DNA from: Dehalococcoidia bacterium
GTDB taxonomy: Bacteria; Chloroflexota; Dehalococcoidia; Lucifugimonadales; UBA1127
Direction of reading: 5' to 3'
Assembly: GCA_965247615.1 (NCBI GenBank)
Contig: OZ252022.1
Location: 2,093,395-2,157,394, forward strand
DNA: 64,000 nt
Shown here: positions 6,502 to 58,073 of the stretch, piece by piece
Position numbering within the stretch: the stretch's first letter is position 1
Layout: each line of letters begins with the position of its first letter
Position numbers and translations under genes: made by a program
Notes under the pieces: model-generated
What the model was told of the DNA's origin: nothing
The model's input: the letters and a program-made list of their open reading frames with translations, nothing else
The model's database searches: none

Positions 6502-6583
6502 CCCGCTCATCGTGAACCGCCGAACCAAATGCGCGTCCGCCCACGCCGCCCACTCTCCCCTACTAGCCGCCGCGCTAGCGGCC
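6502..6583 (+). repeat. Intergenic repeat family, copy F (head + tail modules)
   Basis: CCCGCTCATCGTGAACCGCCGAACCAAATGCGCGTCCGCCCACGCCG...CTAGCCGCCGCGCTAGCGGCC. It aligns over about 80 nt with copy D (57996-58073). The 19-mer 6565-6583 is identical to 48001-48019. Confidence 0.8.
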
Positions 6584-7674
6584 TAGCCGCCGCTCCGCGC
6601 CAACTCCTCCGCCACGTACTCCTCCAGCAGCGCCAGGTTGGCCGGATAGGGGCGCAGCGTGTGCTCGTTGACCAGCCGCGCCACCCTCACGATGGCTCGG
6701 TTGTACGGCGTTGGAATCTCCAACTCCTCCGCCCGTTCCACCACGTAGCCGTTCAGCTGCTCCACCTCCATTGGCATGCCCCGTAGCGCGTCGTGGAGCG
6801 TGGACGGGCGCGTCACCCTCGTCATCGCCTTGGCCTGCTCCACCACCAGCTCCTCCAGGTCCGGCCTACTCCCCGCGGCGGCCTCCTTGACGTCCTGTGC
6901 GCTAAAGATGACCCCCACGCTCCCCCCAAAACCGCCGAACTTGATGCCCAGCTGCTCCCCCACTGCGATCGCCTCCGCCTGCAGCGCCCAACGCAGTCGC
7001 GCCGTGCCGTTCAGCGTCAGCTCCCGCGTGTCCCAGGACGTGATGGCCGCCAGGAGATTGCCTCCGCAGTTGACGATGAACTTGGTCCAGACTTCATCCA
7101 TCACGTGGTCGGAGACCTCGCACGTCCCCACGCTTTCGCGGAACATCTGCGCCAGCCCCTCCATTCTGGGCGTGGTCCCGCCCGAGTACTCCCCGATCAT
7201 GTATTCCACCGCCCCGGGCGTCGAGCCCCCGCCGTGCGTGCGATGAATGTGCCCCGGCTCCCACGTCTGGGCCGCCATCAGCGTCTCGCACCCGATGGTG
7301 CGCTCGGGCCCCACAACCTCCGCGATGATCGGCTCGTTGATGCCGTTCTGCACCGACACCACCATTGCGTCGTCTGCCAGGTACGGCCTGATCAGCTCGG
7401 CGTACTTGCGCGTGTTGTAGCCCTTCACCGACAGGACCACGATGTCCAGCTTCCCCTCAACCTGGTCGAGCTCATCCGTATGGAGCGCCGGAATCACGCC
7501 CTGCCATTCGGTCCGTGCTCCCGTGTACCCCTCGGTCATCAGGAGGCCCACCGTGCGTATGGCTTCGACGTGCGGCCTCCACGGATCGATGATCGTCACG
7601 TCATTGCCGCCCCGATGCAGGCCAATCGCCACGATGCCACCCATGGCCCCGGCGCCCATGACTGCGATCTTCAT
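6583..7674 (-). CDS. Ketopantoate reductase (PanE/ApbA) family oxidoreductase
   Basis: N-terminal Rossmann motif MKIAVMGAGAMGGIVA. Length of 363 aa and overall pattern fit the 2-dehydropantoate 2-reductase family; the substrate is not inferable. Confidence 0.8.
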   Translation of the reverse strand: MKIAVMGAGAMGGIVAIGLHRGGNDVTIIDPWRPHVEAIRTVGLLMTEGYTGARTEWQGVIPALHTDELDQVEGKLDIVVLSVKGYNTRKYAELIRPYLADDAMVVSVQNGINEPIIAEVVGPERTIGCETLMAAQTWEPGHIHRTHGGGSTPGAVEYMIGEYSGGTTPRMEGLAQMFRESVGTCEVSDHVMDEVWTKFIVNCGGNLLAAITSWDTRELTLNGTARLRWALQAEAIAVGEQLGIKFGGFGGSVGVIFSAQDVKEAAAGSRPDLEELVVEQAKAMTRVTRPSTLHDALRGMPMEVEQLNGYVVERAEELEIPTPYNRAIVRVARLVNEHTLRPYPANLALLEEYVAEELARSGG

Positions 7675-7818
7675 TGCACACCCCCGTATACCCGTTCAAG
7701 GCTTTCCCGTGCGACAAACCGCATCATACCGGCCCCGCTGTCCCCTTTCAACAGACCTTCCCGGCCTTCCCATCCCCAGCAAAGCCGTCGTGCCAACGAC
7801 CCCTGCAAATCAGCACTC

Positions 7819-7848
7819 TTGACATGAGACTGCGAATGCGGTTACACT
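7819..7848 (+). promoter_or_regulatory. Sigma70-like promoter candidate for the Fur-family regulator/NicO operon
   Basis: TTGACA (7819-7824), 18-nt spacer, TACACT (7843-7848). A TTGCAA half-site follows at 7852-7857. Confidence 0.45.
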
Positions 7849-7877
7849 CACTTGCAAATGGTCGCGGAAGCACCTCA

Positions 7878-8297
7878 ATGCAACACAACAAGCCACTGGA
7901 AGCTCTCAAGGGGACCGGGTCTCGCCTGACCCCCCAGCGGGTCATGATCCTCCAGGCCATCACCGGCGGAGAGGGCCACATGACCGCGGAGGAAATTCAC
8001 GACAAGGTCAAGGAAATCTATCCCTATATGGACCTGGCCACCGTCTACCGCACCCTCCAGCTCTTCAAGCGGCTCCTTCTGATCACGGAGATAGACCTGG
8101 GCGCCGGCGCCAGCCAGTACGAGCTCGCCGGCGAACGGCGCCACCACCACCTCATCTGCCGATCCTGCGGCGCTGCCTTCGACCTGCCCCTCGACTTCCT
8201 AGACAACCTCCGCCAGCGCCTGCGCACGACATTCGGCTTCGAGCCCGACCTGGAGAACTTCACCCTCCCCGGCCTCTGCGCCGCCTGTGGAGGATAG
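7878..8297 (+). CDS. Fur-family metalloregulator (Fur/Zur/Nur type not resolved)
   Basis: 139-aa product from ATG 7878: LTPQRVMILQAI...HMTAEEIHDKV...ATVYRTLQLF winged helix, HHHLICRSCG...CAACGG metal sites. The ORF track starts at 7674. Confidence 0.9.
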   Translation: MQHNKPLEALKGTGSRLTPQRVMILQAITGGEGHMTAEEIHDKVKEIYPYMDLATVYRTLQLFKRLLLITEIDLGAGASQYELAGERRHHHLICRSCGAAFDLPLDFLDNLRQRLRTTFGFEPDLENFTLPGLCAACGG

Positions 8298-8376
8298 CGG
8301 CGGCCAGTTATCCCGTCGCTGATCAGTACCAGCAACGCGAACAACCACGACATAGCTATGAGGGGGACCATCGAGT

Positions 8377-9126
8377 ATGGAGGTACAATCGGGCGCCATC
8401 ATCGCCCTGACCCTGGGTTTCTTGCTCGGTCTGAAGCACGCCACCGACGCCGACCATGTCGTCGCGGTGTCGACTATCGTCAGTGAGTACCGCAACGCCT
8501 GGAAGGGCATCTGGGTCGGCGCCTCCTGGGGCCTCGGCCACACCACGCCGCTCTTGGTGCTCGGCATCGTCATCTTGCTCCTGAAGGACGTTGCACTGAG
8601 CCGCTACGAGCCCATCGCCCCCGTCTTTGAGTTCGGCGTAGGCGTGATGATGGTCTTCCTGGGGCTTCAGGTGTTCTGGAACCTGCGCCGAGGCCGCCTG
8701 CACGTCCACGAGCACCAGCACGATGCCCAAGCCCACTTGCACATTCACGGCACCCATGAAGCCTCGGAGGAGGCGGTCTCCCTCGAGTCCCACGGCTTCT
8801 TCAAGCCCGGCCGGCCCTTCTTCCGTGCCAAGTCCTACTTGATCGGCATCATCCACGGCCTGGCCGGCAGCGCCGCCGTGATGCTCGTGCTCCTGCCCCA
8901 GATCACCTCCTTCGCCGTGGGGTTCGGCTACCTGCTCCTCTTCGGAGTCGGGACCATCCTCTCCATGGCGGCCACCACCCTCGTTCTGGGTGTGCCCTTC
9001 GCCATGAGCGGCAGGTTCCAGTCCCTCAACCGCTCTATAGCCGGTATCGCAGGGGCGGCGAGTGTCCTATTCGGCGGCGCCCTCATGTCGGACATCGCCC
9101 TCGGCACTGCCCTCGTCCCATTCTAG
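8377..9126 (+). CDS. NicO/NiCoT-like nickel/cobalt transporter with His-rich loop
   Basis: GLKHATDADHVVAV matches the NiCoT signature HAxDADH. About six TM segments and a loop HVHEHQHDAQAHLHIHGTHE. It lies 79 nt downstream of the Fur-family gene. Confidence 0.8.
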   Translation: MEVQSGAIIALTLGFLLGLKHATDADHVVAVSTIVSEYRNAWKGIWVGASWGLGHTTPLLVLGIVILLLKDVALSRYEPIAPVFEFGVGVMMVFLGLQVFWNLRRGRLHVHEHQHDAQAHLHIHGTHEASEEAVSLESHGFFKPGRPFFRAKSYLIGIIHGLAGSAAVMLVLLPQITSFAVGFGYLLLFGVGTILSMAATTLVLGVPFAMSGRFQSLNRSIAGIAGAASVLFGGALMSDIALGTALVPF

Positions 9127-9145
9127 GCACAGCCCAACCGGCGGC

Positions 9146-9177
9146 AGGAGGCGCGGCCGCGCCTCCTTTCCCCTTTC
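9146..9177 (+). terminator. Intrinsic terminator candidate after the NicO gene
   Basis: Stem AGGAGGCGC / GCGCCTCCT around loop GGCC (9146-9167), followed by TTCCCCTTTC. Confidence 0.6.
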
Positions 9178-9186
9178 GCCGGGGTC

Positions 9187-9195
9187 TGGCATAAT
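9187..9195 (+). promoter_or_regulatory. Extended -10 box candidate (TGgCATAAT)
   Basis: TG-n-CATAAT lies 57 nt upstream of ATG 9252. No good -35 is seen. Confidence 0.35.
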
Positions 9196-9251
9196 GGGGA
9201 GCACTCGGCCATCGAGCCGCGCAAGTAAGCTGGGAGGCAGGAGGAAGCGAC

Positions 9252-10118
9252 ATGACAACGGCAGCCAAGAGCTACGACCGCACTCAGGAGGACATGAGCA
9301 ACATCGTGTCCATGGAGCACGTCAACGTCACCATCGGGCGCCAGGACTGGGCCACCCTCTTCTACATCGTCGGCATGGGCTTCACCCGGGACCCCTACAT
9401 GACGGTGGGACTGGAGAACATGTGGGTCAACCTGGGCGAGCAGCAGTTCCACCTGCCCACTCGCGGCCTCCAGGTCCTCCGCGGCCATATCGGCATCGTC
9501 GTCCGGGACCTGGAGGCCCTCAAGACCCGGTTCGAACGCGTTCGTGAAGGGCTGGCGGAGACCGCCTTCAGCTTCCAAGATGAGGACGGGTATCTCGCCG
9601 TCACCGGCCCTTGGGGCAACCGCTTCCGCTTCTACCAGGCAGACGGCAGCAGCCGGGGAATGTCCATGGGCATCCCCTACGTCGAGTTCACGGTCCCCCA
9701 GGGCGCCGCGCCGGGCATCGGCCGCTTCTACCAGCAGGTCATGCTCGCCCCCTCCTCCATGGTGCAGGAAGAGGAGGGCCCCGCCGCCAGGGTGAGCGTC
9801 GGCCGCAACCAGTCCCTCATCTTCCGGGAAACCGCCGCCGAAATCCCCGCCTACGACCAGCACCACATCGCCATCTACACCGCCGACTTCTCCACGCCCT
9901 ACAGCTGGATGAAGGAGCACGGCCTCATCACCGAGGAGAGCAACCAGCACATGTACCGCTTCGAGGACATCGTGGACCCGGATACGCACGAGAACCTCTT
10001 CACCATCGAGCACGAGGTCCGCAGCATGCGCCATCCCATGTTCATGCGTGACCTGGCCAACCGGAACCCGGAGCAGTCCCTCGGCGGCTACGTCCGCGGC
10101 GCCGACCGCCTCAGCTAG
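9252..10118 (+). CDS. Conserved hypothetical protein, possibly a two-domain VOC-like fold
   Basis: 288-aa ORF with a strong RBS (GGAGGCAGGAGGAAG). Protein-like composition (MEHVNVTIG..., HHIAIYTADF...). No motif I can assign with confidence. Confidence 0.7.
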   Translation: MTTAAKSYDRTQEDMSNIVSMEHVNVTIGRQDWATLFYIVGMGFTRDPYMTVGLENMWVNLGEQQFHLPTRGLQVLRGHIGIVVRDLEALKTRFERVREGLAETAFSFQDEDGYLAVTGPWGNRFRFYQADGSSRGMSMGIPYVEFTVPQGAAPGIGRFYQQVMLAPSSMVQEEEGPAARVSVGRNQSLIFRETAAEIPAYDQHHIAIYTADFSTPYSWMKEHGLITEESNQHMYRFEDIVDPDTHENLFTIEHEVRSMRHPMFMRDLANRNPEQSLGGYVRGADRLS

Positions 10119-10152
10119 CCGGCGCCTGCCTCACACGTCTCGAAACCACAGC

Positions 10153-10180
10153 GGGGCGATGCATGCATCGCCCCACTTTC
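10153..10180 (+). terminator. Intrinsic terminator candidate
   Basis: 22-nt perfect palindrome GGGGCGATGCATGCATCGCCCC (10153-10174) followed by ACTTTC, 35 nt after stop 10118. Confidence 0.6.
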
Positions 10181-10256
10181 GCCCCCTCAACCAGGCGGGC
10201 CGCGCGCTCAAGCCAAGTGCCCCCGGCCCCACACCGCCGCTGGCAGCACCCGTTTC

Positions 10257-10285
10257 TTGACACCGGCGCGCCGGCTGCCTACACT
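10257..10285 (+). promoter_or_regulatory. Sigma70-like promoter candidate for bicupin paralog 1
   Basis: TTGACA (10257-10262), 17-nt spacer, TACACT (10280-10285). The spacer holds the perfect 12-bp palindrome CCGGCGCGCCGG (10263-10274). Confidence 0.55.
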
Positions 10286-10322
10286 CCACTCAAACTCGCT
10301 TGAATGCATAGAGGAGGAGCTC

Positions 10323-11465
10323 ATGGCCACCTCGCCAGTTAACGCGACACCGGTCAACCAACCCCTGGACACCTACCATAAGATCGACTCCTACATGGGG
10401 TTCGCCAAGAGCGAGGGCATCCCCATCTACGACGTGTACAGCGTGGACTGCATCACCGTTGAGCTGCAGCCCTGGGACCGCCTGGGGGGCAACGGCGCCT
10501 ACGTGAACCTGGCTGGCCGCGGCGACCTCTGCAACACCTACGTCGCCGAGATCCTGCCCGGCGGTCAACTGAACCCGGAGCGCCACATGCACGACGAGCT
10601 CATCCACGTCGTCTCCGGCCGCGGCGCCACCACCATCGAGCTCCCCGGCGGCGCCAAGCACACCTTCGAGTGGGGCGCGGGCTCCCTCTTCGGCATTCCC
10701 CTCAACGCCAAGCACCAGCACTTCAACGGCTCCGGGTCCGAACCGGCCCGCTTCGCCGCCATCACCAACCTCCCCATCTACCTCAACCTCACCCACGAGG
10801 TCGAATTCATCTTCAACAACGACTACGAATTCAAGGGCCGCGCCTCCGATGAGCGCCACTTCCGCGGCGAGGGCGACTTCTGGCCCGTGAAACCGGGCCG
10901 GCATCAGTGGGTCACCAACTTCGTCCCGAGCCTCTACGACTTCGAGCTTCCGCCATGGCCCGAGCGCGGCGCCGGCGGCAACAACGTCACCTTCGTCATC
11001 GCCGACAGCTCCATCCAGGGCCACATCTCGGAGTTCCCCCAGGGCACCTACAAGAAGGCCCACGCCCACAACGCCGGCGCCCATATCTGGTGCGCAGGCG
11101 GCCACGGTTACAGCCTCCTATGGCAGGAAGGCGAAAACCCCGTCGACACCGTGCGCGTGGACTGGAAGCCCGGTGTCATGTACGCGCCCCCGGACGGCCC
11201 CACCTACCACCAGCACTTCAACACCGCGGACAGACCCTCCCGCTACCTCGCCCTCTACCCCACAGGCTCCCGCTACGCCGTCCTCCCAAGCTGGCTCAAG
11301 TTCTCCGACGGCGCCGACGTCTCGCAGAAGCAGGGCGGCATTCAGGTGGAGTACGAGGACGAGGACCCCCGCATTCTTGAGCTCTTCGAGGAGGAGTGCC
11401 GCAAGACCGGCAACAGCTCCATCATGCGCGACTACCTCCGGGAGAAGCACGCCATAGGTCGCTAG
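10323..11465 (+). CDS. Bicupin protein, gentisate-1,2-dioxygenase-like architecture (paralog 1)
   Basis: ATG 10323 follows GAGGAGGAG. Cupin metal motif ...PERHMHDELIHVVSGRGATTIE...PLNAKHQHFN and a second cupin ...HAHNAGAHIWC...PTYHQHFN. About 70% identical by eye to 14861..15979. Confidence 0.8.
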   Translation: MATSPVNATPVNQPLDTYHKIDSYMGFAKSEGIPIYDVYSVDCITVELQPWDRLGGNGAYVNLAGRGDLCNTYVAEILPGGQLNPERHMHDELIHVVSGRGATTIELPGGAKHTFEWGAGSLFGIPLNAKHQHFNGSGSEPARFAAITNLPIYLNLTHEVEFIFNNDYEFKGRASDERHFRGEGDFWPVKPGRHQWVTNFVPSLYDFELPPWPERGAGGNNVTFVIADSSIQGHISEFPQGTYKKAHAHNAGAHIWCAGGHGYSLLWQEGENPVDTVRVDWKPGVMYAPPDGPTYHQHFNTADRPSRYLALYPTGSRYAVLPSWLKFSDGADVSQKQGGIQVEYEDEDPRILELFEEECRKTGNSSIMRDYLREKHAIGR

Positions 11466-11651
11466 CTCCTCCCAGCGCCCCTGCCCCCCATACGGGAGAG
11501 GGGGCTGAGCCGAAAAGGGGCGGACGCTGCCATGAGCGCGCCGCCTCAGTCCATGACGGGCGCGGATGGGGCCGGACGTGGTCCGCAGCCGCCATCACAC
11601 TGAGGATTCGCCCCAAGACCGCTGGCCGCCCGGCACGTGGGAGCAATCGTC

Positions 11652-12701
11652 ATGGACCATAACCGGACCGTCCGCGCCGCAGCCGTCCAGCTCGCCCCCG
11701 TCCTCTTCGACCGCGAAGCCACGACCCGGAAGGTCATCGACGCTATCGCCGAGGCCGGACGCCAGGGCGCGCAGCTCTTGGTCTTCCCAGAGACCATCAT
11801 TCCCAACTACCCCTACTTCGCCAACTGGCAGCCGCCCGCCATAATCGCGGAGCAGCACATGCGGCTCTGGGAGCAGTCGGTCGACGTCCCCGGCCCGGTC
11901 ACCGATGCCGTGGGCAGGGCCGCCGGGAGCGCGGCCGTCGTCGTGGTCCTGGGCGTCAACGAGCGCGACGGCGGCAGCCTGTTCAACACCCAGCTCGTCT
12001 TCGACGCCGACGGCACCCTGCTGGCCAAGCGCCGCAAGCTCATGCCCACCTACCACGAGCGCATGATCTGGGGCTGGGGCGATGGCTCAGACCTGAAGGT
12101 GGTTGAGACAGCGGTGGGCCGCGTCGGGCCCCTCATCTGCTGGGAGCACTACATGCCCCTCTCCCGCTTCGCCCTCATGGCCCAGCGAGAAGAGATCCAC
12201 TGCTCCCACTTCCCCGGCGCTATCGGCCGCCCCGGCTTCGCCGACGAGGTCGACGCCACCATCCGCCATCACGCCATGGAGTCGGGCTGCTTCGTCGTCA
12301 ACGCCACCGGCTGCCTCACGCCGGAGCAGGTCGCCCAGCTCTGCCCGGACCCCAACCTCAGAGAGCGCCTGGCCACCGACGGCCAGCTCACCGCCATCGT
12401 CGGCCCGGACGGTCGCCACGTCACACAGCCTCTGCGGGAAGGCGAGGGGATGGTCGTAGCCGACCTGGATATGAGCGCCATCCAGCGCCGCAAGCTTCGC
12501 ATGGACTCTGCCGGCCACTACGCCCGCCCGGACGTCACCCGCCTGTGGCTGGACCGTCAGCCACGCCGCCTTGTAGAGGGGCCCAGCGACGGCGCGACAG
12601 CCCCCGGGGAATCGAGCCTGGCTGCCGATGGCACAGAGGCGGCGCGGGCATCCCGCATCGCGGAGCTGGAGGGAGAGCTGCGACGGCTTAGGGGTGCGTG
12701 A
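11652..12701 (+). CDS. Nitrilase / carbon-nitrogen hydrolase family protein
   Basis: VRAAAVQLAPVLFD..., LLVFPETIIPNYPYF (Glu), RKLMPT (Lys), ICWEHYMP (Cys) catalytic triad context. ATG 11652 follows GGGAG. Confidence 0.9.
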   Translation: MDHNRTVRAAAVQLAPVLFDREATTRKVIDAIAEAGRQGAQLLVFPETIIPNYPYFANWQPPAIIAEQHMRLWEQSVDVPGPVTDAVGRAAGSAAVVVVLGVNERDGGSLFNTQLVFDADGTLLAKRRKLMPTYHERMIWGWGDGSDLKVVETAVGRVGPLICWEHYMPLSRFALMAQREEIHCSHFPGAIGRPGFADEVDATIRHHAMESGCFVVNATGCLTPEQVAQLCPDPNLRERLATDGQLTAIVGPDGRHVTQPLREGEGMVVADLDMSAIQRRKLRMDSAGHYARPDVTRLWLDRQPRRLVEGPSDGATAPGESSLAADGTEAARASRIAELEGELRRLRGA

Positions 12702-22725: not shown

Positions 22726-22920
22726 ATGTGGGTCGAGTTCAAGCGCGTCCCCAACCTGATGGCCGCCGAGATGTGGAAGGACACCTTCGAGTCCGAAGGG
22801 CTGCCATGCCGCATTCTGCCCAACGGCGACATCCGAAGCTGGAGCGAGCGCAGTCCCTTCGTGGTGTACGTGCCCAAGGGCCGCGAGCACGTCGCCGACG
22901 AGATTCTGAGGAAGCTGTGA
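22726..22920 (+). CDS. Small DUF2007-like (putative signal-transducing, beta-alpha-beta-beta-alpha-beta) protein embedded in the nuo operon
   Basis: 64 aa MWVEFKRVPNLMAAEMWKDTFESEGLPCRILPNGD...FVVYVPKGREHVADEILRKL. The pattern resembles DUF2007 proteins (from memory). GAGG lies about 11 nt upstream. It occupies the nuoK-nuoL gap. Confidence 0.5.
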   Translation: MWVEFKRVPNLMAAEMWKDTFESEGLPCRILPNGDIRSWSERSPFVVYVPKGREHVADEILRKL

Positions 22921-39787: not shown

Positions 39788-39832
39788 CCGCTCATGGTAA
39801 GCCACCCACAGCGAACCCGCGCCACCCTCCCC
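39788..39832 (+). repeat. Intergenic repeat family, truncated copy G
   Basis: CCGCTCATGGTAAGCCACCCACAGCGAACCCGCGCCACCCTCCCC, 38 nt after the lgt stop. It shares CAAGCCGC…TCATGGT(G/A)AG with copy B. Confidence 0.55.
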
Positions 39833-44779: not shown

Positions 44780-45200
44780 CGGCAGTCCCTCCCGCCCCCG
44801 GCTTCACTTCACCCGCCGGATCCGCTCAACTCTCCTGACGTCCCCGCCCGGACGCCTCCAACGGAGCAACCTCAGCCCTGCCACTTCCCCCTAGCGCGGG
44901 GCACAGAACGACCACGGATCGTGCCACTCAAATTCAGCAGCCGGGCTCTCGCCCGCGTCGCCTGTGCGAATAAACGCTGTCGAGGCTAATGGCCGAATAC
45001 TTCTCCGGCCCCGCAACCAAGACCTTACGAATTGCAGACCCTCCTTGTCAAGAGAACGTCAGTGCTGAGTCGTATCTACGGCGCAATATTCAATGGAATC
45101 GCTCCCAGTGGCATGTTGCGATAGCAAATTCCAACCAATAGCTATACATTCGACGACATCTGAGCCCATTCAAGGAGTCTTCCGTCGCTCACCCCTTCCC

Positions 45201-45235
45201 CCGCTCATGGTGCAGATCTCGAACCAGTTGAGCCG
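45201..45235 (+). repeat. Intergenic repeat family, copy A (head module)
   Basis: CCGCTCATGGTGCAGATCTCGAACCAGTTGAGCCG. Stems GCTCA/TGAGC and TGGT/ACCA. Confidence 0.75.
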
Positions 45236-45379
45236 GGGAGGAACGCCGCCGACACCCTGAACCCGTCGAAGGACGCCATTCCCCCTCCCCCACGGCAGAT
45301 AGACGGTCTACACTGGACACCAACGGCACTTCCCCCTCCTCTACGCGAGACAACCTGGACAAGGGAGAAACACCCTCCC

Positions 45380-48000: not shown

Positions 48001-48159
48001 AGCCGCCGCGCTAGCGGCCGCGCTCATGGTGAGGACCTCGAACCAAATGGGCTGGCCGGGGCGGCCGCCCCGGTCCCACGCCCGCCGCCGGACCCACAAC
48101 AAACGTGGGGGGCGGCCCGCGCGCGGGCCGCCCCCCACAAAGCCGTCGCACTAGCGACC
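48001..48159 (+). repeat. Intergenic repeat family, composite copy B (tail - head - two GC palindromes - tail)
   Basis: AGCCGCCGCGCTAGCGGCC (48001-48019), head 48022-48052, CCGGGGCGGCCGCCCCGG (48056-48073), 34-nt palindrome 48105-48138, AGCCGTCGCACTAGCGACC (48141-48159). Confidence 0.8.
48092..48138 (-). terminator. Intrinsic terminator candidate for the minus-strand amidohydrolase gene
   Basis: Perfect 17-bp-arm palindrome GTGGGGGGCGGCCCGCG/CGCGGGCCGCCCCCCAC. On the minus strand it is followed by GUUUGUUGUGGGU. It starts 24 nt after stop 48162. Confidence 0.6.
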
Positions 48160-48161
48160 GA

Positions 48162-49447: not shown

Positions 49448-49466
49448 GGTGCCCCGTGCATGGGCT
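49448..49466. repeat. Left copy of the 19-bp direct repeat flanking the IS
   Basis: GGTGCCCCGTGCATGGGCT, identical to 50892-50910. Confidence 0.9.
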
Positions 49467-50891
49467 GTCGTTGTCCAGTGATTCTGTCAGGGTTGTTGTT
49501 CAATGATTATGTCAGTAGCGCTCTCCTCCAGGGGTGGTTGGGCGCTGGCTTGGTGGGGATGCGGGCCGTGGTCTTCGCCGGGGGACGGGGAGCAGTTGCC
49601 GGTGCGCGGTGACCGTCACGGGCAGGTCGGGCTGGCGAGTCGGCTGGCAGCTGACCGTTGGAGCGGCGGCCGGTGCGGGCCCTGAGCGCGACGGGCCCGG
49701 CGGGGGCCGGCGCTGTGGCCACGGTCCTGCCCTGGTGGACGACCACGATGCTGCCGTCCAGCCGCTCTTGGACTTCGACGCGGGTCCGAGCGTAGCTGGT
49801 CCTGCGCCCATCGGGGAGCGCCTGCAGCGCGGCGCCGTTGAAGTGGATGGTGTGGTCGTTGGCCACGGTGCGTAGGTACTTGAAGCACCGGACCGCATCA
49901 AGGGAGACGCCCGGCGGCAGTGGGCGATAGGCCGGTTCCCGCTGGGCCGGCGCCACGCCGAACTGCCGATCGTATCGCGGCAGGAAGTCCCCGAGCATCC
50001 GGTTGGCCTCCTCGATGGTCGCCGCGCCCGCGAGGCGCATCTCCGAGACCAGGCGGTCCTGGAAGGTGTCCCACGCGCGCTCCACGCGACCCTTCGCCTG
50101 GGGTGTATGGGCCATGATGAGCTCGATGCCCAACTCCTCGAGCGCCCGGGCGAACTGCGTGGGCTCGCGCCGGCCCCGAAGCTGCTCGTCCCGGCTCTCC
50201 GACTCCCGGGGCGAGCGCTGGAAGATGCTATGCCGATCGCTATAGAGGGCCATCGGCACGCCGCGGCGGTCGATGATCTCCTTGAGCATGAGCAAGTAGC
50301 CGTGGGCGTCCTCCTGTTCTCTGAATAGGGCGAAGGGGACCGTCCCCGTGGCGTCGTCCACGGCCCCGATGAGCGTCAGGCGGGGTCCCCGACCCTCCAA
50401 CCAGTCGTGCCTGCTCCCGTCGATCTGCAGCAGCATCCCCTCCTGGGGGTAGCGCTCCCTGCGCAGATAGCGCTTGCGCGCTCGGCGGCGGCGGGGACTC
50501 CGAACACCGCCCGCCAGCAGCACCCGCCGGACGGTGGAGCGGGACAGATCGACGCCCTCCCGCTCGGCCAACAGCTCGGTCAGATGCGAGTGGTTGAAGC
50601 CGGCGTAGCGGCCCTTGGCTAGCGCCGTCACCTGTTCCTGCGTCTCCGGGCTTGTGGCGGTCGACGGCCGTCTGCCCCTGTTTCCGTGAGCCACCCCGGC
50701 AGCTCCCTCCTTTCGATACGCCGCCAGCAGTCGCCACGCGTGGCGCTCGCTCACCCTCATCAGTTCGGCCGCCTCAGCCATCAACACCTTCCGCTCGATC
50801 ACACCGTTCAACACCTGTATCCGGGCTTGCTCTCTGGTAGTCAACGTCAGTCCTTTCATAGACTGACATTTTCATTGACCAGTTACCCACT
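49467..50891 (-). mobile_element. Insertion sequence, ISNCY (IS1202-group)-like, about 1.43 kb
   Basis: A single transposase gene fills the element. It is bounded by perfect 19-bp direct repeats. Imperfect inverted repeats lie near both ends (left CCAGTGATT…TCAATGATTATGTCAGT; right complement CCAGTGGGT…TCAATGAAAATGTCAGT). Exact termini are uncertain by about 10 bp on the left. Confidence 0.8.
49507..50859 (-). CDS. ISNCY-family (IS1202-group-like) DDE transposase with N-terminal HTH
   Basis: MKGLTLTTREQARIQVLNGVIERKVLMAEAAELMRVSERHAWRLLAAYRKEGAAGVAHGNRGRRPS… is the characteristic N-terminus. rve-like core …LLQIDGSRHDW…LIGAVDDATG…ALYSDRHSIF…. Confidence 0.85.
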   Translation of the reverse strand: MKGLTLTTREQARIQVLNGVIERKVLMAEAAELMRVSERHAWRLLAAYRKEGAAGVAHGNRGRRPSTATSPETQEQVTALAKGRYAGFNHSHLTELLAEREGVDLSRSTVRRVLLAGGVRSPRRRRARKRYLRRERYPQEGMLLQIDGSRHDWLEGRGPRLTLIGAVDDATGTVPFALFREQEDAHGYLLMLKEIIDRRGVPMALYSDRHSIFQRSPRESESRDEQLRGRREPTQFARALEELGIELIMAHTPQAKGRVERAWDTFQDRLVSEMRLAGAATIEEANRMLGDFLPRYDRQFGVAPAQREPAYRPLPPGVSLDAVRCFKYLRTVANDHTIHFNGAALQALPDGRRTSYARTRVEVQERLDGSIVVVHQGRTVATAPAPAGPVALRARTGRRSNGQLPADSPARPARDGHRAPATAPRPPAKTTARIPTKPAPNHPWRRALLT

Positions 50892-50910
50892 GGTGCCCCG
50901 TGCATGGGCT
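50892..50910. repeat. Right copy of the 19-bp direct repeat flanking the IS
   Basis: GGTGCCCCGTGCATGGGCT. Its last T is the first base of the rsmD promoter -35 box. Confidence 0.9.
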
Positions 50911-52082: not shown

Positions 52083-52097
52083 ATAAAAGGAGGAACC

Positions 52098-52625
52098 ATG
52101 GAAATCTTGAGCCTAGTCGACAAGCTGGAATCCTACGCTACCGCGAGTGCGCGCCTCCCGGGCACCCACAAGGTGATGATCGACGGCGACCGGCTCCTTG
52201 AGCTCGTCGACCAGTTCCGCGTGGCCATCCCCAAGGATGTCCGGGACTCCCAGGACATGCTCGCCCAGCGCGAAGCCATCATCAATCAGTCCCTTCTCGA
52301 CGCCCGCCGCATCAAGGCCTCCGCCGAAGAGGAGTCCCGCAACCAGGTCCACAAGCACACCATCTCCCAGGATGCTTCGGCCCGGGCCGAAGAAATCCTC
52401 GCGGACGCCAAGCACCGCGCCGATGCCCTCCTCCAGGACTCGCAACGCAAGGCCCGCGACGCCATGAGCGAGGCCCAGAGCTTCAGCGACGGCCGCATCA
52501 ACGAGTCCAACCGGTACGCCACGGAGACCCTCTTCCGCCTCGAGCAGCAGCTCGCCTCCGTCCTCAACGCTGTCCGCCGCGGCCTGGACAGCCTGGAGGA
52601 GCACCAGCGGGAGAAGGTCGCCTAG
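52098..52625 (+). CDS. Hypothetical coiled-coil protein (ATP-synthase-b/E-like heptad region)
   Basis: 175 aa after a strong RBS AAAAGGAGGAA. Charged, Ala/Arg/Glu-rich helical sequence. No catalytic motif recognised. Confidence 0.7.
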   Translation: MEILSLVDKLESYATASARLPGTHKVMIDGDRLLELVDQFRVAIPKDVRDSQDMLAQREAIINQSLLDARRIKASAEEESRNQVHKHTISQDASARAEEILADAKHRADALLQDSQRKARDAMSEAQSFSDGRINESNRYATETLFRLEQQLASVLNAVRRGLDSLEEHQREKVA

Positions 52626-52827
52626 CCCTCTCCTCCCTCGCCAACTCTGTACAACTCTGGAGAGCGCTTCCCAATCGCCTTTCACACGCCGGCCCTACGG
52701 ATGCCGGCCTGGATCCGAGGGGGGCCTCGCTGGCGGGCCGGGTGTCGTTGGTCGCCGACCCCGGTCCTGCCAGCGAGGCGTCCAGACCCATTCCTTCAGT
52801 CCCGGCCTGCGCCGCCTACTCCCCCCG

Positions 52828-52861
52828 CAAGCCGCCGCGCAGGCGGCCCGCTATGGCGACC
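52828..52861 (+). repeat. Intergenic repeat family, degenerate tail-head junction (copy P)
   Basis: CAAGCCGCCGCGCAGGCGGCCCGCTATGGCGACC compared with copy B CAAGCCGCCGCGCTAGCGGCCGCGCTCATGGTGAGG. Confidence 0.5.
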
Positions 52862-52909
52862 GCCCCTCCGCACGCTATAATGCCTCCACCCTCTCAGGGA
52901 GGCGTTGCC

Positions 52910-55708
52910 ATGCCAAACAATAACCCCAACCAAACGCAAATGCCCATGGACCGGGAACCTCTCCTCCTCCTCATGGACGGCCACGCCATGGTCCATCGCG
53001 CCTGGCACGCCATCCGCAACCCCCTCACCATCTCCAAGACCGGAGAAGAGGTTCGGGGCGTCTACGGCTTCGCCCAGATGGTCCGCAGGGCCGTGGAAGA
53101 TTACCGTCCCACCCACGTCATCCTCACCTTCGACAGCGCAGCGCCCACCTACCGCCACGAGGAGTTCCAGGAGTACAAGGCCCAGCGCCCGGACATGCCA
53201 GACGACCTCCGCCGCCAGTTCCCCCACGTGCGCCGCCTCATGGAGTCCTTCCGCGTCCCCATCATGGAGATGGACGGCTACGAGGCCGACGACCTCCTCG
53301 GCGCCCTCAGCTCCCAGGCCGAGGCCCAGGGCCTCGCCTCCATCATCCTCACCGGCGATACCGACCTCCTCCAGCTCGTCTCGCCCCGCGTCCGCGTCCT
53401 CCTCCAGTACAAGATTGCCGAGCAGCTCACCTTCGACGAAATCAAGGTCCGGGAGCGCTTCGGCGGCCTCGCCCCGGAGCAGCTCGTCCACATGAAAGCC
53501 CTCAAGGGCGACCCCTCCGACAACATCCCCGGCGTCCCCACCATCGGTGAGAAAGGCGCCATAAAGCTGGTGCAACAATTTGGCACCGTCCAGGGCATCT
53601 ATGACAACCTAGACGCCCTGCCCCAGAAGCAGCAGGACCTCTTCCGACAGCACCGCGACAGGGCCTTCCAGGGCGTCCGCCTCATCACCATCGACCGCGC
53701 CGCCCCCGTCAACCTCGACCTCGAACAGTGCCGCTGGGGCAACTACGACCGCGCCGAAGTCCTCGACGTCCTCCGCGACCTGGAGTTCCATAGCCTCGTG
53801 CGGTGGGTTCCCGAGGGCGCCATCGTCAGCGGCGACCGCGGCGCCGCCCCCGCCAGCTCCCCGGACCAGGACGTGCCTCTGCACTACACGACCGTCACCG
53901 ACGACGCCGGACTCGATGCCCTCGTCCAGGCCCTCCTCGCCTCCGGCCGCTATGCCTTTGATACCGAGACCGCACCCTTGGACCCGGAGAGCAAGGCCGT
54001 GGACCCCGTCCGCTCCCGCATCGTCGGCCTCTCCTTCGCCACCTCCCCCGGCGTCGCCTGGTACGTCCCCATCGGCCACGCGGAGGGCCCCCAGCTGGAC
54101 CCCACAGCCGCCCTCGAGCGCCTCAAGCCCGTCCTGGAATACCCGGACCTCTCCAGGGCGGCCCACAACGCCAACTATGACATGACCGTCCTCGGCAGCA
54201 GCGGGGTCACTGTCCCCACCCTCGAATTTGACACCATGGTCGCTGCCCACCTCCTGGGCCACAAAGCCATCGGCCTCAAGAACCTGGCCCTGGACCTCCT
54301 CGGCGTGGAGATGACCCCTATCTCGGAGCTCATCGGCTCCGGCCGCAACCAGACCACCATGGACCGGGTGCCGGTGGAGAAGGCCGCCCCCTATGCCTGC
54401 GCCGACGCCGACATGACCCTCCGTCTCTGGGACCGCCTCCTCGTCGACATGCAGCGCGACACCTCTTGGAAGCTGTTCACGGATGTCGAGATGCCCCTGA
54501 CCCCCGTCCTCGTGGCCATGCAGCTCCGGGGCATCACCCTGGACGCACCCATGCTCCAGGCAATGGGCGGCGACCTGGGTGAGCGCCTGGTTGAGCTGGT
54601 GGAGAAGACATACGAATCGGTGGGGCACACATTCAACCTGGCCGCCCCCCAACAGCTGGGCGAGATCCTCTTCGGAGAGCTGAAGCTGGCCGAGCTGCTC
54701 GGCTGGGGCAAACCCAGACGCACCAAGACAGGCGGCTACTCCACCGACGCCTCCATTCTCGAGGCCCTGCGCGGCGCCCATCCCGTCGTCGATCTGGTCC
54801 TTGAGCACCGCCAGCTCAGCAAGCTCAAATCAACCTACGTTGACGCCCTGTCCGTCCTCGTCAATCCCAGGACTGCCCGCGTGCACACCAGCTACAACCA
54901 GGCCGGCTCCGTCACCGGCCGCGTCTCCTCCAACGACCCCAACCTTCAGAACATCCCCATCCGCACCGAGCTCGGACGCAAGATCCGCAACGCCTTCACC
55001 CCCGGCGAGCCGGGCTGGAGCCTCATCGGCGCGGACTACTCGCAGATCGAGCTCCGTGTCCTGGCCCACCTCTCCCAGGACCCCGCCCTCCTCGACGCCT
55101 TCCACCAGGACATGGACGTCCACGCCGCTACCGCGGCCCAGGTCTTCGGCGTGGACCTCGCCGACGTCACCGCCGACCAGCGGCGCCTGGCCAAGGTCCT
55201 CAACTTCGGCGTCATCTACGGCCTCAGCGCCTTCGGCATCTCCCAGCAGACGGAGCTCACCGCGGAGGAGGGCAAGCAGTTCATCGAAGGCTACTTCAAC
55301 CGCTACCCGGGCATCAGGGAGTACATTGAGCGCACCAAGTCCCAGGCCAGGGAGCAGGGCTACGTCCAGACCATGTGGGGGCGTCGCCGCAGGATCCCGG
55401 AGATCGATTCGAGCAACAATAACCTGCGCCAAGCGGCGGAGCGGGAGGCCATCAACACCCCCGTCCAGGGCACCGCCGCCGAGGCCATGAAGAAAGCCAT
55501 GATCGACGTCTACCGGAACATGCAGCGGGAGGGCCTCCGCAGCCGCATGCTCCTCCAGGTCCACGACGAGCTCATCTTCGAAGCCCCCGCGGAAGAGATC
55601 GAGCCACTCAAGTCCCTGGCCGTGGATACGATGCCCAGGGCCATGGACCTTGACGTCCCCCTCAAAGTCACCGTCAAGCTCGGCGCCACCTGGGGCGACC
55701 TCGAGTAA
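52910..55708 (+). CDS. polA: DNA polymerase I
   Basis: 5'-nuclease N-terminus (LLLLMDGHAMVHRAWHA…), 3'-5' exo region (…AFDTETAPLD…), polymerase motifs (…DYSQIELRVLAH…, …RRLAKVLNFGVIYG…, …QVHDELIFE…). ATG 52910 lies 7 nt after GGGAGG. TATAAT at 52876-52881. Confidence 0.95.
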   Translation: MPNNNPNQTQMPMDREPLLLLMDGHAMVHRAWHAIRNPLTISKTGEEVRGVYGFAQMVRRAVEDYRPTHVILTFDSAAPTYRHEEFQEYKAQRPDMPDDLRRQFPHVRRLMESFRVPIMEMDGYEADDLLGALSSQAEAQGLASIILTGDTDLLQLVSPRVRVLLQYKIAEQLTFDEIKVRERFGGLAPEQLVHMKALKGDPSDNIPGVPTIGEKGAIKLVQQFGTVQGIYDNLDALPQKQQDLFRQHRDRAFQGVRLITIDRAAPVNLDLEQCRWGNYDRAEVLDVLRDLEFHSLVRWVPEGAIVSGDRGAAPASSPDQDVPLHYTTVTDDAGLDALVQALLASGRYAFDTETAPLDPESKAVDPVRSRIVGLSFATSPGVAWYVPIGHAEGPQLDPTAALERLKPVLEYPDLSRAAHNANYDMTVLGSSGVTVPTLEFDTMVAAHLLGHKAIGLKNLALDLLGVEMTPISELIGSGRNQTTMDRVPVEKAAPYACADADMTLRLWDRLLVDMQRDTSWKLFTDVEMPLTPVLVAMQLRGITLDAPMLQAMGGDLGERLVELVEKTYESVGHTFNLAAPQQLGEILFGELKLAELLGWGKPRRTKTGGYSTDASILEALRGAHPVVDLVLEHRQLSKLKSTYVDALSVLVNPRTARVHTSYNQAGSVTGRVSSNDPNLQNIPIRTELGRKIRNAFTPGEPGWSLIGADYSQIELRVLAHLSQDPALLDAFHQDMDVHAATAAQVFGVDLADVTADQRRLAKVLNFGVIYGLSAFGISQQTELTAEEGKQFIEGYFNRYPGIREYIERTKSQAREQGYVQTMWGRRRRIPEIDSSNNNLRQAAEREAINTPVQGTAAEAMKKAMIDVYRNMQREGLRSRMLLQVHDELIFEAPAEEIEPLKSLAVDTMPRAMDLDVPLKVTVKLGATWGDLE

Positions 55709-55813
55709 CCTGGCGGCAGCCCCAGGCGTCCCGCTCACGCCCTTCGAGAGCCTCAGAGTGAGCGGCCTACCCAGAGCGCCGAGCCCCAGCAGGTTCCCCG
55801 CGTGGGATGGGGT

Positions 55814-55887
55814 CTCGCTCATGGTGAGGCCCTCGAACCAGAGGAGCGCCCTACCCCCACCCCCAGAATGCCGCCGCGCTAGCGACC
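55814..55887 (+). repeat. Intergenic repeat family, copy C (head + tail)
   Basis: CTCGCTCATGGTGAGGCCCTCGAACCAGAGGAGCGCCCTACCCCCACCCCCAGAATGCCGCCGCGCTAGCGACC, 106 nt after the polA stop. Confidence 0.8.
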
Positions 55888-55972
55888 CGCCGAACCACCC
55901 CCAGGTTGACCCAGCCATCCCCTGCCGCTACAATCCCCCCAAACAACCAGAACATGAACCGCGGAGGCCACC

Positions 55973-56209
55973 ATGCCCCTCTACGAGTACCACTGCGAGC
56001 GCTGCACATCGACCTTCGAGTTCCTGCGCCCCATGAGCGCCTCCAAGGACCCCGCCGACTGCCCCCGGTGCGAGGCCCCAGCCCCGCGCGTCCTCTCCGT
56101 CTTTGCCGCCTACTCAGGCAGCTCCGGCCAGAGCGCCGCACCCGCCCCCCTCGCCGGCATGGGCGGCTGCGGCGGCTGCGCCACCGGGGCCTGCGCCTGC
56201 GCCCACTAG
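55973..56209 (+). CDS. FmdB-family zinc-ribbon protein (CxxC_CxxC_SSSS)
   Basis: MPLYEYHCERCTSTFEFL…DPADCPRCEAP…RVLS, Cys/Gly-rich tail. RBS GCGGAGG. Confidence 0.88.
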   Translation: MPLYEYHCERCTSTFEFLRPMSASKDPADCPRCEAPAPRVLSVFAAYSGSSGQSAAPAPLAGMGGCGGCATGACACAH

Positions 56210-56259
56210 CCCCGCTCTAGGGCAGCCGTCCACAGCTACGCGCGGCGTCCCCTAGGTGA

Positions 56260-56294
56260 CCGCTCATCGTGTGGCACTTGAACCACTTGAGCGG
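56260..56294 (+). repeat. Intergenic repeat family, copy E (head module)
   Basis: CCGCTCATCGTGTGGCACTTGAACCACTTGAGCGG. 7-bp outer stem CCGCTCA/TGAGCGG and inner GTGG/CCAC. It lies 51 nt after the fmdB stop. Confidence 0.7.
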
Positions 56295-56608
56295 CGGGCG
56301 GCGGAGTCCCCAGCATTCCCGGGGACAGCCTCCCATAGCGATGCCCCTGAACCAACCAACCGGCGGGGCGCGGATATCCCCCGTAGCGGCGGGCCTGAAA
56401 CCCTCCCCCATCCCAGGGCGCCCGCCCGCAGCCACACGCGCGGTCCCCTGCCGGCAAACGTAGCCAACCATGGACAGGCCGGCTGCGTCAGCCCTACGCC
56501 GATCGGCACCTTCATCGACCTCGACAGCACGCCGGCGTCGGCGGAGGACGGCCAGGCCAACCCCAGCAACCGCAAGTACATCCTCGACTGCGCGCATAAC
56601 CTGGGGAA

Positions 56609-57943
56609 ATGATCAACGGCCTCGGCGACCTATCCCGGATAGGCGCAGCCTTTCGAAGAGGGGGTAGCACCGTGGATCGGCTGAGAACACTGCTTCTTGT
56701 CATTGGGATTGTTGCCGTCGCTGTGGTCGTGGCGGGATACCTTTTCTTGATGCTCGACCAGGCCAACGCCGACTTGTTGGAGACTACAGCTAGCTTGCAA
56801 GAGACCACAGCTGACTTGCAGGAGACCACTATCGAGCTTGAAATTCGGAAGACGTTGAACGTCAACCTTGAGTCGGAGAACAGCGCGTTGCTATCCCAGA
56901 AGGAAGGACTTGAGTCGGCAAGGAGCGCCCTGGAGGTCTCCCTGGGGGATGCTCTGTCGGAGAGCGCCGGGCTCCAGGTAGACCTCCGCGTCGCCAACGC
57001 ACAGGCCCAGGAGCAGGAGGCGCGGTACGAGAGGCTCAGCTCAGAACGCGACGACCTGGCCGCTCAGCATGAGGACCTGGGCTTCAGGCACTCGGACCTG
57101 CAGGTCCAGTACGAGAAGCTCGGCTTACAGCGTGACGACCTAGCCGCTCAGCATGAGGACCTGGGTTTCAGGCACTCGGACCTGCAGGCCCAGTACAAGA
57201 AGCTCGGCTTACAGCGCGACGAGCTGGCCGCCCAGTTTGAGGACCTGAGCTTCCGGCACTCGGAGCTGCAGCTGGCGGTGGGAACGGTGGACGACCTGAG
57301 GACCAAGGCGTCTGCTCTGCGCGACGAGATCGAGGAGCTCGAGGAATGGCGGCGCCCGCTCATCCTAGCGCTGGATAGCGCCGCGACCTCGGGCTTCAAG
57401 TGCACCGGAAGCATGGAGCCGACAATAACGTGTCTGGACCGGGCCACATTCCTGACCAACTTCAGACCGGAGGACATCGTGGTCGGCGCGACCATCTCCT
57501 TCAATCCCAACTGCTGGGAAGATGGGGCAAGCGGCCGAGGGGCTGCCCACCGAGTGGCGGACATCGAACTGAGGGGTGGCATCTACCACTACTGGCCCAA
57601 GGGCGACGCGAGCGACGAGCCTGACGGCTGCTGGATACCCCAGACCAGCGTTCGGGGGTACATTATCGAGATCCACAAGAACGCCGTGCCGGAGAACGCC
57701 GAGCTGCGCGACCAGGTGAACGCTGCAAGGGCAGCCTTTGTGGCCGCCCGGGAGGCCTATCGCGATCTGCTGGAGGGGTACTGCGGCTCCCGCGATCCGG
57801 ACGGGTGCTATTTGGACCCGCGCCCGTATGCCGAGGTGGACGAAGCGTACGAGAGGGCTCTCGAAGCACAAGAACACTGGCGCTGCTGGTACGAGAACGC
57901 GGGGAAATCGGAGTACCCCGGGCACATCCCCCACGAGTGCTAG
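56609..57943 (+). CDS. Membrane-anchored coiled-coil protein fused to an ER/archaeal-type (S26B, SipW-like) signal peptidase I domain
   Basis: TM LLLVIGIVAVAVVVAGYLFLML; about 230 aa of coiled coil with 28-aa tandem repeats. C-terminal boxes are TGSMEPT (Ser), EDIVVG, AHRVADI (His) and PKGDASDEPDG. The start is ATG 56609 (ATGA overlap with an upstream ORF) or GTG 56672 (7 nt after GAAGAGGGGG). Confidence 0.75.
   Translation: MINGLGDLSRIGAAFRRGGSTVDRLRTLLLVIGIVAVAVVVAGYLFLMLDQANADLLETTASLQETTADLQETTIELEIRKTLNVNLESENSALLSQKEGLESARSALEVSLGDALSESAGLQVDLRVANAQAQEQEARYERLSSERDDLAAQHEDLGFRHSDLQVQYEKLGLQRDDLAAQHEDLGFRHSDLQAQYKKLGLQRDELAAQFEDLSFRHSELQLAVGTVDDLRTKASALRDEIEELEEWRRPLILALDSAATSGFKCTGSMEPTITCLDRATFLTNFRPEDIVVGATISFNPNCWEDGASGRGAAHRVADIELRGGIYHYWPKGDASDEPDGCWIPQTSVRGYIIEIHKNAVPENAELRDQVNAARAAFVAAREAYRDLLEGYCGSRDPDGCYLDPRPYAEVDEAYERALEAQEHWRCWYENAGKSEYPGHIPHEC
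57050..57277 (+). repeat. In-frame 84-bp tandem repeat (about 2.7 copies) inside the coiled-coil region
   Basis: Units 57050-57133 and 57134-57217 (about 90% identical; DDLAAQHEDLGFRHSDLQxQYxKLGLQR), plus a diverged third unit from 57218. Confidence 0.9.
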
Positions 57944-57995
57944 GAGAGAGGGAAGACCACCCATGGGCACTAGCTGCTGTGTTTGCCCAGGGGCT

Positions 57996-58073
57996 CCCGC
58001 TCATGGTGAGCCCCTCAAACCAAATGAGCAGCCTACCCACGCCGTCTCTCCTCCCCCGCTAGCCGCCGTGCTA
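57996..58073 (+). repeat. Intergenic repeat family, copy D (head + tail)
   Basis: CCCGCTCATGGTGAGCCCCTCAAACCAAATGAGCAGCCTACCCACGCCGTCTCTCCTCCCCCGCTAGCCGCCGTGCTA. Its end coincides with the complement stop codon of the TIGR01906 gene. Confidence 0.8.

Follow-up and report, generated by a model that had tools for sequence, protein, structure and literature searches.

The 64,000-nt stretch of Dehalococcoidia bacterium DNA analyzed here (contig OZ252022.1, positions 2,093,395 to 2,157,394; hereafter the window) carries in its intergenic DNA a recurring hairpin, which we call the head. We put at about 60% the probability that the head represents a bulged form, specific to its lineage, of a palindromic DNA repeat family that occurs in Chloroflexota and resembles repetitive extragenic palindromic (REP) sequences; the family is apparently undescribed. 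In the broad sense, REPs are short (20 to 40 nt) palindromes with a stem-loop that are multicopy, extragenic, and arranged in inverted or direct arrays, and all of these features were found for the family. A sequence-only reading of the window had offered three interpretations of the head: a terminator-like RNA element at gene 3' ends, a REP-like protein-binding site, or a nonautonomous mobile element. The extragenic palindrome, its arrays, its enrichment in convergent spacers, and its indels between genomes support a REP-like or mobile DNA, and the missing T-run speaks against a terminator.

A hairpin family with covarying stems

A relaxed head pattern, run against 185,579 species genomes, matched 94 loci, about half of which belonged to Chloroflexota/Dehalococcoidia metagenome-assembled genomes (MAGs), where the head motif forms the core of a perfect 33-nt hairpin. 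The canonical unit, CCGCTC-N5-GAGGCTCTCGA-N5'-GAGCGG, has an 11-bp stem and an 11-nt, nearly invariant loop. It occurs in relatives as an ATGGT-type perfect hairpin (A1; CCGCTCATGGT-GAGGCTCTCGA-ACCATGAGCGG) and, at the same loci, as a sister type (A2; CCGCTCGTCCT-GAGGCTCTCGA-AGGGCGAGCGG) that shares the outer stem and loop and has a different inner stem. The inner 5 bp covary between these subtypes (ATGGT/ACCAT versus GTCCT/AGGGC). Among 46 distinct copies, a set to which admission required at least 9 of 11 pairs, 92% of cells were paired and 5 of the 11 pairs were changed on both sides. The covariation score of this preselected set was reached by none of 500 shuffles, and the signal was lost when partner columns were slid.

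The window copies represent a bulged subfamily, with an outer stem of 7 bp, a 2-nt bulge on the 3' side, and an inner stem of 4 bp, which includes both inner-stem types and was found also in five other genomes. The stems that had been proposed from the window alone were borne out, with 93.5% of cells paired and double-sided changes at four pairs across 21 copies from the 6 genomes. A wobble pair suggested for the outer stem of the copy at 48022 is present there as a G-T pair. The full outer stem CCGCTCA/TGAGCGG of the copy at 56260 (head 56256 in Table 1), which had been taken for a special extension, is likewise present and is simply the family consensus.

The head is absent from Rfam, as the sequence-only reading had supposed: the window had no matches at gathering thresholds, a permissive scan over 44 to 59 kb returned only noise, and 15 loci rich in perfect copies yielded only a c-di-AMP riboswitch elsewhere. 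A known RNA family was rejected on these scans. Literature searches within a paper library returned no match for the hairpin sequence or its pseudo-peptides. We also rejected a tRNA-like origin of GGTTCGAG, since ARAGORN found none in the tested loci and the arms form no T-arm, and a minus-strand small open reading frame (ORF) with a ribosome-binding site (GAGG...ATGAGC), since the downstream "peptides" differ at every copy.

Copies of the head in the window

The head pattern GCTCATSGTGAGGNCCTCGAACCA had five plus-strand matches at no more than 3 mismatches, with 0 expected from dinucleotide shuffles. A covariance model (CM) built from the 46 hairpins, all from other genomes, and run on the window with filters off accepted seven copies: five clear copies and one decayed copy on the plus strand and one strong copy on the minus strand (Table 1). 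All seven are intergenic, with intergenic DNA making up 16.6% of the window (chance p ~3e-6). The genes that flank them are ordinary housekeeping genes, namely those for PanE, Lgt, RecJ, a metallo-beta-lactamase (MBL)-fold hydrolase, a molybdopterin oxidoreductase, a glyoxalase/VOC protein, an amidohydrolase, PolA, a zinc-ribbon protein, and Lit.

Eight head copies, all on the plus strand, had been claimed previously. The family is real, and the five clear copies and the decayed one stand; the copies claimed at 39790 and 52849 are noise, the former scoring 7.6 CM bits, within the range of chance matches, and the latter ("degenerate head") having no CM match, with fold z ~0 against shuffled sequence for both. 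The uniform strand holds for the ATGGT subtype (6 of 6, p = 0.03) and not for all types together (6 of 7, p = 0.125), because the A2 copy at 55727-55769, missed in that reading, lies on the minus strand. This A2 copy and head 55811-55853 form the one inverted pair of the window.

The family fold is adopted by four window copies (z = -1.0 to -3.2), including head 57993-58035, and is no longer the best structure for heads 6499 and 55811. Head 6499 gave no fold signal (z = +0.27). A long alignment reported between copies 6502 and 57996 was reproduced, as the copies at 6490, 55802, and 57984 share 63-67% identity in an alignment of ~86 columns, with 67% identity between the head 6499 copy and copy 57984 over 86 columns. 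The copy at 6499/6505 is best read as a decayed relic. An isolated A2-type right half at 45186-45198 lies 1 to 4 nt upstream of the head at 45197/45203.

Table 1. Hairpin copies, half-copies, second-module copies, and a terminator-like site
Feature	Location	Strand	Description
Decayed head copy	6499..6538	+	Between two minus-strand genes, an NHL-repeat protein gene and panE; CM 12 bits (6499-6523), E ~0.5
Head copy A1	45197..45239	+	Divergent spacer, MBL-fold gene (-)/molybdopterin oxidoreductase gene (+); CM 22.2 bits; fold z = -2.0
Head copy A1	48018..48056	+	Convergent spacer, glyoxalase/VOC gene/amidohydrolase gene; CM 20.8 bits (48023-48049)
Sister-type hairpin A2	55727..55769	-	CCGCTCAC-TCT-GAGGCTCTCGA-AGGG-CG-TGAGCGG; 20 nt past polA stop codon; CM 37.1 bits, E = 2e-8, top CM score in window
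Head copy A1, bulged subfamily	55811..55853	+	Between polA and fmdB-like gene; CM 30.6 bits
Head copy A1	56256..56298	+	3' of fmdB-like gene; CM 15.2 bits (56256-56305); fold z = -2.7
Head copy A1	57993..58035	+	Convergent spacer, coiled-coil gene/Lit; CM 26.9 bits; fold z = -3.2
Isolated right half, A2-type	45186..45198	-	GAAGGGGTGAGCG; ends at loop position; inverted, just upstream of head 45197; from right-half-only census
Half-copy	L087		Three tandem 20-nt left halves, then one right half
Half-copy	L047		Reversed left half next to full copy
Half-copies	L096, L020		Left half, then common conserved ~185-nt unit
Half-copy	L097		Left half at site of window head 55811
Half-copy	L105		Loop fragment with same end point, then full copy
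Module B	6565..6582	+	AGCC-GCCGC-GCTA-GCGGC; after head; abuts panE stop codon at 6583
Module B alone	7775..7800	+	CCAGCAAAGCC-GTCGT-GCCA-ACGAC-C; stem covaries relative to other copies
Module B	48001..48019	+	Immediately 5' of head 48022, reverse of head-tail order
Module B with C-run, alone	48128..48159	+	CCCCCCACAAAGCC-GTCGC-ACTA-GCGAC-C; 3 nt from amidohydrolase stop codon
Module B alone	52828..52848	+	GCAAGCC-GCCGC-GCAG-GCGGC-C; upstream of polA promoter
Module B	55855..55892	+	After head; 38-nt indel between 10-nt direct repeats CCACCCCCAG
B-like sequence	58052..58075	+	CTAGCCGCCGTGCTAATGGC; overlaps Lit stop codon 58071-58073
Module B inverted	62970..63004	-	In locally G-rich intergenic stretch
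Module B inverted	63128..63159	-	Inverted orientation
GC-rich 36-nt palindrome, then TTTGTTG	48104..48139	-	Sole terminator-like site near a head; outside repeat family

Distribution in relatives

The CM found 110 copies in 52 loci of relatives, 103 of them intergenic by a GC3-based gene call. Neighboring copies no more than 150 nt apart formed 42 pairs (27 inverted and 15 direct), and the typical array consists of an ATGGT-type copy, a spacer of ~5-40 nt, and an inverted GTCCT-type copy. Orientation relative to flanking genes was random, with 20 copies codirectional with both neighbors and 19 opposite. Convergent spacers were preferred, 19 of 44 being occupied, compared with 31 of 183 others (tandem, 21 of 129; divergent, 10 of 54; Fisher p = 4e-4). 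The published distribution of REPs follows the same pattern (PMC3733652).

Of the sampled genomes with a complete chromosome, OZ240224.1 is the closest. Three modules make up its mosaic intergenic DNA: the head, a second module described below (module B), and a CGTC-type palindrome, CGTCATTCCCGC-N4-GCGGGAATCC, interleaved with the heads. The head is also carried there in a longer unit of ~115-150 nt, found with high identity at no fewer than 5 dispersed sites. Outside chromosomes, the hairpin had no match among plasmids (PLSDB) and one among viral sequences (IMG/VR), and a phage or plasmid origin was rejected on these counts.

Good hairpin copies were also observed on a contig of 48% GC binned as Syntrophaceae, where they form an inverted pair (L076 7255-7358), and on one binned as Acidobacteria gp6 (L075 489-517); these reflect either cross-phylum horizontal spread or binning errors. 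In two different MAGs, N4/N6 DNA methyltransferase genes with a DPPFN motif have hairpins on both sides (L073 5905-7568 and L082 333-1883), the former bracketed by direct copies and the latter by mixed-orientation clusters. One of these methyltransferases has a C-terminal HNH motif, and the other, judged from sequence alone, appears to have a restriction-endonuclease-like C-terminal region.

Turnover between close relatives

Searches for polA homologues gave syntenic loci in four genomes, with protein identities of 98% (L096), 92% (L097), 74% (L098), and 69% (L099). The A2 copy at 55727-55769 is kept in L096 and L097 and absent in L098, and head 48018-48056 has an ortholog in L096 at 1088-1130. 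L098 has no heads in 9 kb, and its polA-fmdB spacer measures 83 nt versus 264 nt in the window. At the position of head 55811, a left half in L097 is separated from the full copy that follows by ~220 nt of other repeat modules.

The next spacer, between fmdB and Lit, is 87 nt in L097, where it holds an ordinary terminator hairpin, and 75 nt in L098, versus 1861 nt in the window, where the region contains a coiled-coil gene bracketed by heads 56256 and 57993. A 1834-nt segment with these two heads distinguishes the window from L097. L096 matches the window exactly as far as ...GTGTGGCACTT in the loop of head 56256, beyond which its DNA is wholly unrelated. The modules are gained, lost, and broken as discrete DNA-level events on a short time scale.

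The coiled-coil gene itself (56609-57943) has three 84-nt (28-amino-acid) tandem repeats at 57010-57271 and no Pfam domain, and it is missing at the syntenic position in L097 and L098. Its product has 121 homologues, mostly unnamed, and those that are named come from Chloroflexota/Dehalococcoidia MAGs. A mobile cassette bounded by heads was considered for this segment and rejected, as distant coiled-coil homologues (L100-L102) lie in unrelated contexts without heads.

Half-copies and a possible common break point in the loop

In about seven cases, half-copies of the hairpin end at the same loop position, CTCT(C/T)^GAAC, or GGTTC^GAG on the other strand (Table 1). As read from these sequences, the break point would fit site-specific nicking by an HUH-type or other hairpin-specific enzyme, which is suggestive only.

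The conserved unit of ~185 nt in two of the half-copy loci (L096 9334-9520 and L020 750-939, minus strand) lies directly 3' of the hairpin left half, between flanking genes that are otherwise unrelated. It is noncoding, bears the sequence marks CATACCTA...CACCAAAAACTGCGGTACTCGTGG...GCTGGTTCGAGTCTCRGCAGGTGGGC, contains TGGTTCGAG, a complement of the hairpin loop region, and has a predicted structure with six compensatory pairs. The unit had no Rfam or tRNA match, and a widespread element was rejected, as only these two instances were found and its core had no matches in JGI metagenomes.

We consider it improbable that a hairpin-specific Chloroflexota nuclease or recombinase recognizes and cleaves the conserved 11-nt loop (CTCTC^GAAC/GGTTC^GAG). 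If one did, the family would be a new REP-like class cut in the loop, like a rolling-circle origin, and not at the stem foot; it could capture or shuffle adjacent DNA, such as the coiled-coil segment, the methyltransferase genes, or the 185-nt unit; and a new pair of enzyme and DNA hairpin would be indicated.

An independent second module

The sequence-only reading had joined the head and a CTAGC-containing tail into one modular unit. The tail, which we call module B, forms a hairpin of 5 bp closed by a tetraloop; a C-run and AAGCC come before the hairpin, and the stems of its copies covary (GCCGC/GCGGC, GTCGC/GCGAC, and GTCGT/ACGAC). In OZ240224.1 it reads GGTCGCTGGCGCGACGGCTTTGTGGGGGGAGGG, the reverse complement of the tail as first described. 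Module B is cooriented with the head in most of the window and OZ240224.1 loci, but the single unit did not hold, as the tail also occurs alone, before the head, and inverted (Table 1). The 38-nt module B indel at 55855-55892 is missing from L096 and L097 in the alignment, and the B-like sequence at 58052-58075, the supposed tail of copy 57996, is kept in L097, where the site has no head. Because the tail varies in order and orientation, and because the indel and L097 comparisons separate the two, head and tail are independent neighboring modules.

An intergenic stretch of the window at 62809-63027 (...cctggtttgaatgttt...tttttttgcg...), G-rich locally and holding an AT-rich patch, has 75% identity to an intergenic stretch of OZ240224.1 (L073 5184-5414), and inverted B modules flank the stretch in both genomes. 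The OZ240224.1 counterpart lies upstream of a DNA methyltransferase-nuclease fusion gene, and the window stretch is followed by a short ORF (63160-63366) with no Pfam match.

Strand asymmetry and orientation

The plus strand of the window is strongly C-rich, and because GC skew is alike (about -0.15 to -0.18) in plus-strand genes, minus-strand genes, and spacers, this asymmetry is not transcriptional. Of the 27 copies in the window and in seven OZ240224.1 loci, 23 run forward along the locally C-rich strand regardless of gene direction; these copies are nonindependent, as they cluster in 8 loci. In other genomes the link is weak: among A1 pattern matches, 33 fall on the C-rich and 20 on the G-rich strand. 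The shared orientation that had been proposed as a trait of the family was not upheld. It is at most a lineage-specific trend, which would fit insertion into one replication strand.

About 70% of the window's genes (37 of 52) also lie on the C-rich strand. In the usual arrangement the gene-rich leading strand is G-rich, and the gene placement of the window is the opposite. Some genes deviate in skew: 49507-50859 (0.00), 56609-57943 (+0.07), and 22726-22920 (+0.06). The first of these, on the minus strand, encodes a 450-amino-acid protein with HTH_32, HTH_29, and HTH_23 domains, in which Pfam finds no DDE or other catalytic domain. It sits in a segment resembling an insertion sequence (IS) at 49448-50910, with the copies of a perfect 19-nt direct repeat, GGTGCCCCGTGCATGGGCT, on either side (49448-49466 and 50892-50910). 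This segment is present in L096 and precisely missing in L097, which is 93-97% identical.

Weighing the alternatives

Several observations weigh against a REP-like DNA repeat. The GTAG/GTGG or CGTC 5' tag was absent from the flanks of the 46 copies, whose commonest flanks are CGAT/CTTT on the 5' side and AGCA on the 3' side. Target-site duplications, which together with terminal inverted repeats mark a miniature inverted-repeat transposable element, were not found around perfect copies, the only direct repeat at an indel being that of 10 nt at the 38-nt module B. A regex scan limited to HUH plus Y-x3-[NQ]-P motifs yielded no convincing RAYT/HUH gene in the window and the first 94 loci (~0.75 Mb of loci); RAYTs are single-copy genes. 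The genome scan was itself biased in its sampling, and 3'-decayed copies were oversampled because its pattern runs from the 5' arm through the loop and ends with the inner 3' arm. The loop-break-point evidence comprises only about seven cases, and hairpin-induced breakage or replication slippage could yield like junctions without a dedicated enzyme. A metagenome scan for left-half tandem junctions found one further real case only, and tandem left-half arrays were rejected as a common product.

A role of the hairpin in RNA at gene 3' ends, stopping transcription or shielding mRNA from 3' exonucleases, would suit the five window copies that lie 20-110 nt past a plus-strand stop codon, the enrichment in convergent spacers in relatives, the covarying stems with their G-T pairs, and the 3'-untranslated-region regulation reported for E. 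coli REPs. We nevertheless regard it as unlikely. A U-tract is absent and a terminator scan flags none of the heads; copies also lie on the promoter side of genes, as at 45197 in the window and in the 10 of 54 divergent spacers in relatives; two window copies, heads 6499 and 55811, have lost the family fold as their best structure; the orthologous spacers of L097 and L098 do without the element and have an ordinary terminator hairpin in its place; and wobble evidence on which strand would be the RNA is mixed. The random orientation of copies with respect to flanking genes (20 versus 19) also counts against this role, yet the missing bias leaves room for it, because a perfect palindrome folds in the transcript of either strand. 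The hairpins could also be ends or targets of a larger mobile element, such as IS91-like HUH ends or an IS110/IS1111 insertion site, with the dispersed copies as footprints or solo ends. IS91 targets GTTC/CTTG, and IS110-family elements insert into REPs. The half-copies that break at GGTTC^GAG, the left halves in L096 and L020 that run into the same structured ~185-nt unit with its loop-complementary sequence, and the genes with hairpins on both sides (the coiled-coil gene and the methyltransferases in L073 and L082) would agree with such an element. It too seems doubtful, as neither the 185-nt unit nor the hairpins have a transposase or recombinase beside them (the neighbors are a response regulator and an enoyl-CoA hydratase), the only transposase-like gene of the window (49507-50859) is unrelated to the hairpins, the core of the 185-nt unit lacks a JGI metagenome match, distant homologues of the coiled-coil gene lack flanking hairpins, and most copies are whole palindromes, not ends.

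Least probable is a selected protein-binding or chromosome signal: an operator, a nucleoid or gyrase site, a DNA uptake sequence, or a strand-polar replication signal. The conservation of the loop and 5' arm over many genomes and the 23 of 27 copies on the C-rich strand would speak for it, as would the binding of IHF, gyrase, and Pol I by E. coli bacterial interspersed mosaic elements (BIMEs) (PMC6006769). Convergent-spacer enrichment argues against an operator; other genomes have inverted pairs and no skew link of that kind (33 versus 20), and the 27 copies fall in only 8 nonindependent loci; the copies keep strictly outside genes, which uptake and polar motifs do not; and rapid gain and loss among 92-98% identical genomes is at odds with a fixed positional function.

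For a REP-like repeat, we propose that spread would proceed via the hairpin form of single-stranded DNA, on which a trans-acting, structure-specific nuclease or transposase would work as in REP/RAYT systems, and the loop may hold a preferred break and join point at CTCT(C/T)^GAAC. Copies would survive mainly where they are least harmful, 3' of genes, and any effect of an RNA 3' hairpin on neighboring transcripts would be a by-product. An RNA-level role is possible as a secondary one.

Significance and comparison with known systems

REP-type repeats are well studied in Proteobacteria but have scarcely been described in the large, mostly uncultivated phylum Chloroflexota. The family reported here is common to many Chloroflexota MAGs, with an unusually conserved loop. 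Standard REP/RAYT surveys miss it because the tags used for automatic REP detection are absent. The repeats yield spurious small ORFs in MAG annotation, an example being the methyltransferase ORF call in L082, which traverses three hairpin copies at its 5' end. They also make homologous intergenic sequence hard to align and mark rearrangement hot spots between near-identical genomes.

Like the nick sites of rolling-circle, IS91, and IS200-IS605 HUH systems, the head has a sequence-specific hairpin loop, in which half-copies end at one position, and in the window lineage its orientation tracks strand asymmetry. It differs from them in having no linked HUH gene and in occurring mostly as complete single palindromes and not as paired ends, and cleavage would be deduced from about seven junctions. 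With the untagged stem-loop repeats of M. tuberculosis, D. radiodurans, Bordetella, and cyanobacteria (cited in PMC3733652) it shares a GC-rich, intergenic, tagless form with no known mobilizing enzyme; there is no known sequence relation, and the head family spans many genera of one phylum with a conserved loop. The CGTC-tagged palindromic repeats (Di Nocera et al. 2013, PMC3733652) are likewise REP-like, occur in many phyla, and have no dedicated transposase identified, but their stem and loop measure 8-9 bp and 4-5 nt versus 11 bp and 11 nt for the head, which is tagless and a separate module. The one REP family of Chloroflexi found in that paper, GTAG-23, reported for Thermomicrobium roseum, is GTAG-tagged (PMC3733652).

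The closest likeness is to the REP/BIME sequences of Enterobacteria and the RAYT-associated REPINs of Pseudomonas. The head lacks the 5' GTAG/GTGG of these systems, and the motif regex found no cognate RAYT in the window and 94 loci. REP loops are 2-5 nt (PMC6006769), compared with 11 nt for the head, in which the loop is the most conserved part. In common with these repeats, the family consists of ~33-nt palindromes that are extragenic and multicopy, occur as singletons or mosaic clusters, and prefer spacers downstream of genes, and its subtypes pair as heterodimers, ATGGT with GTCCT, in the manner of Y and Z REPs.

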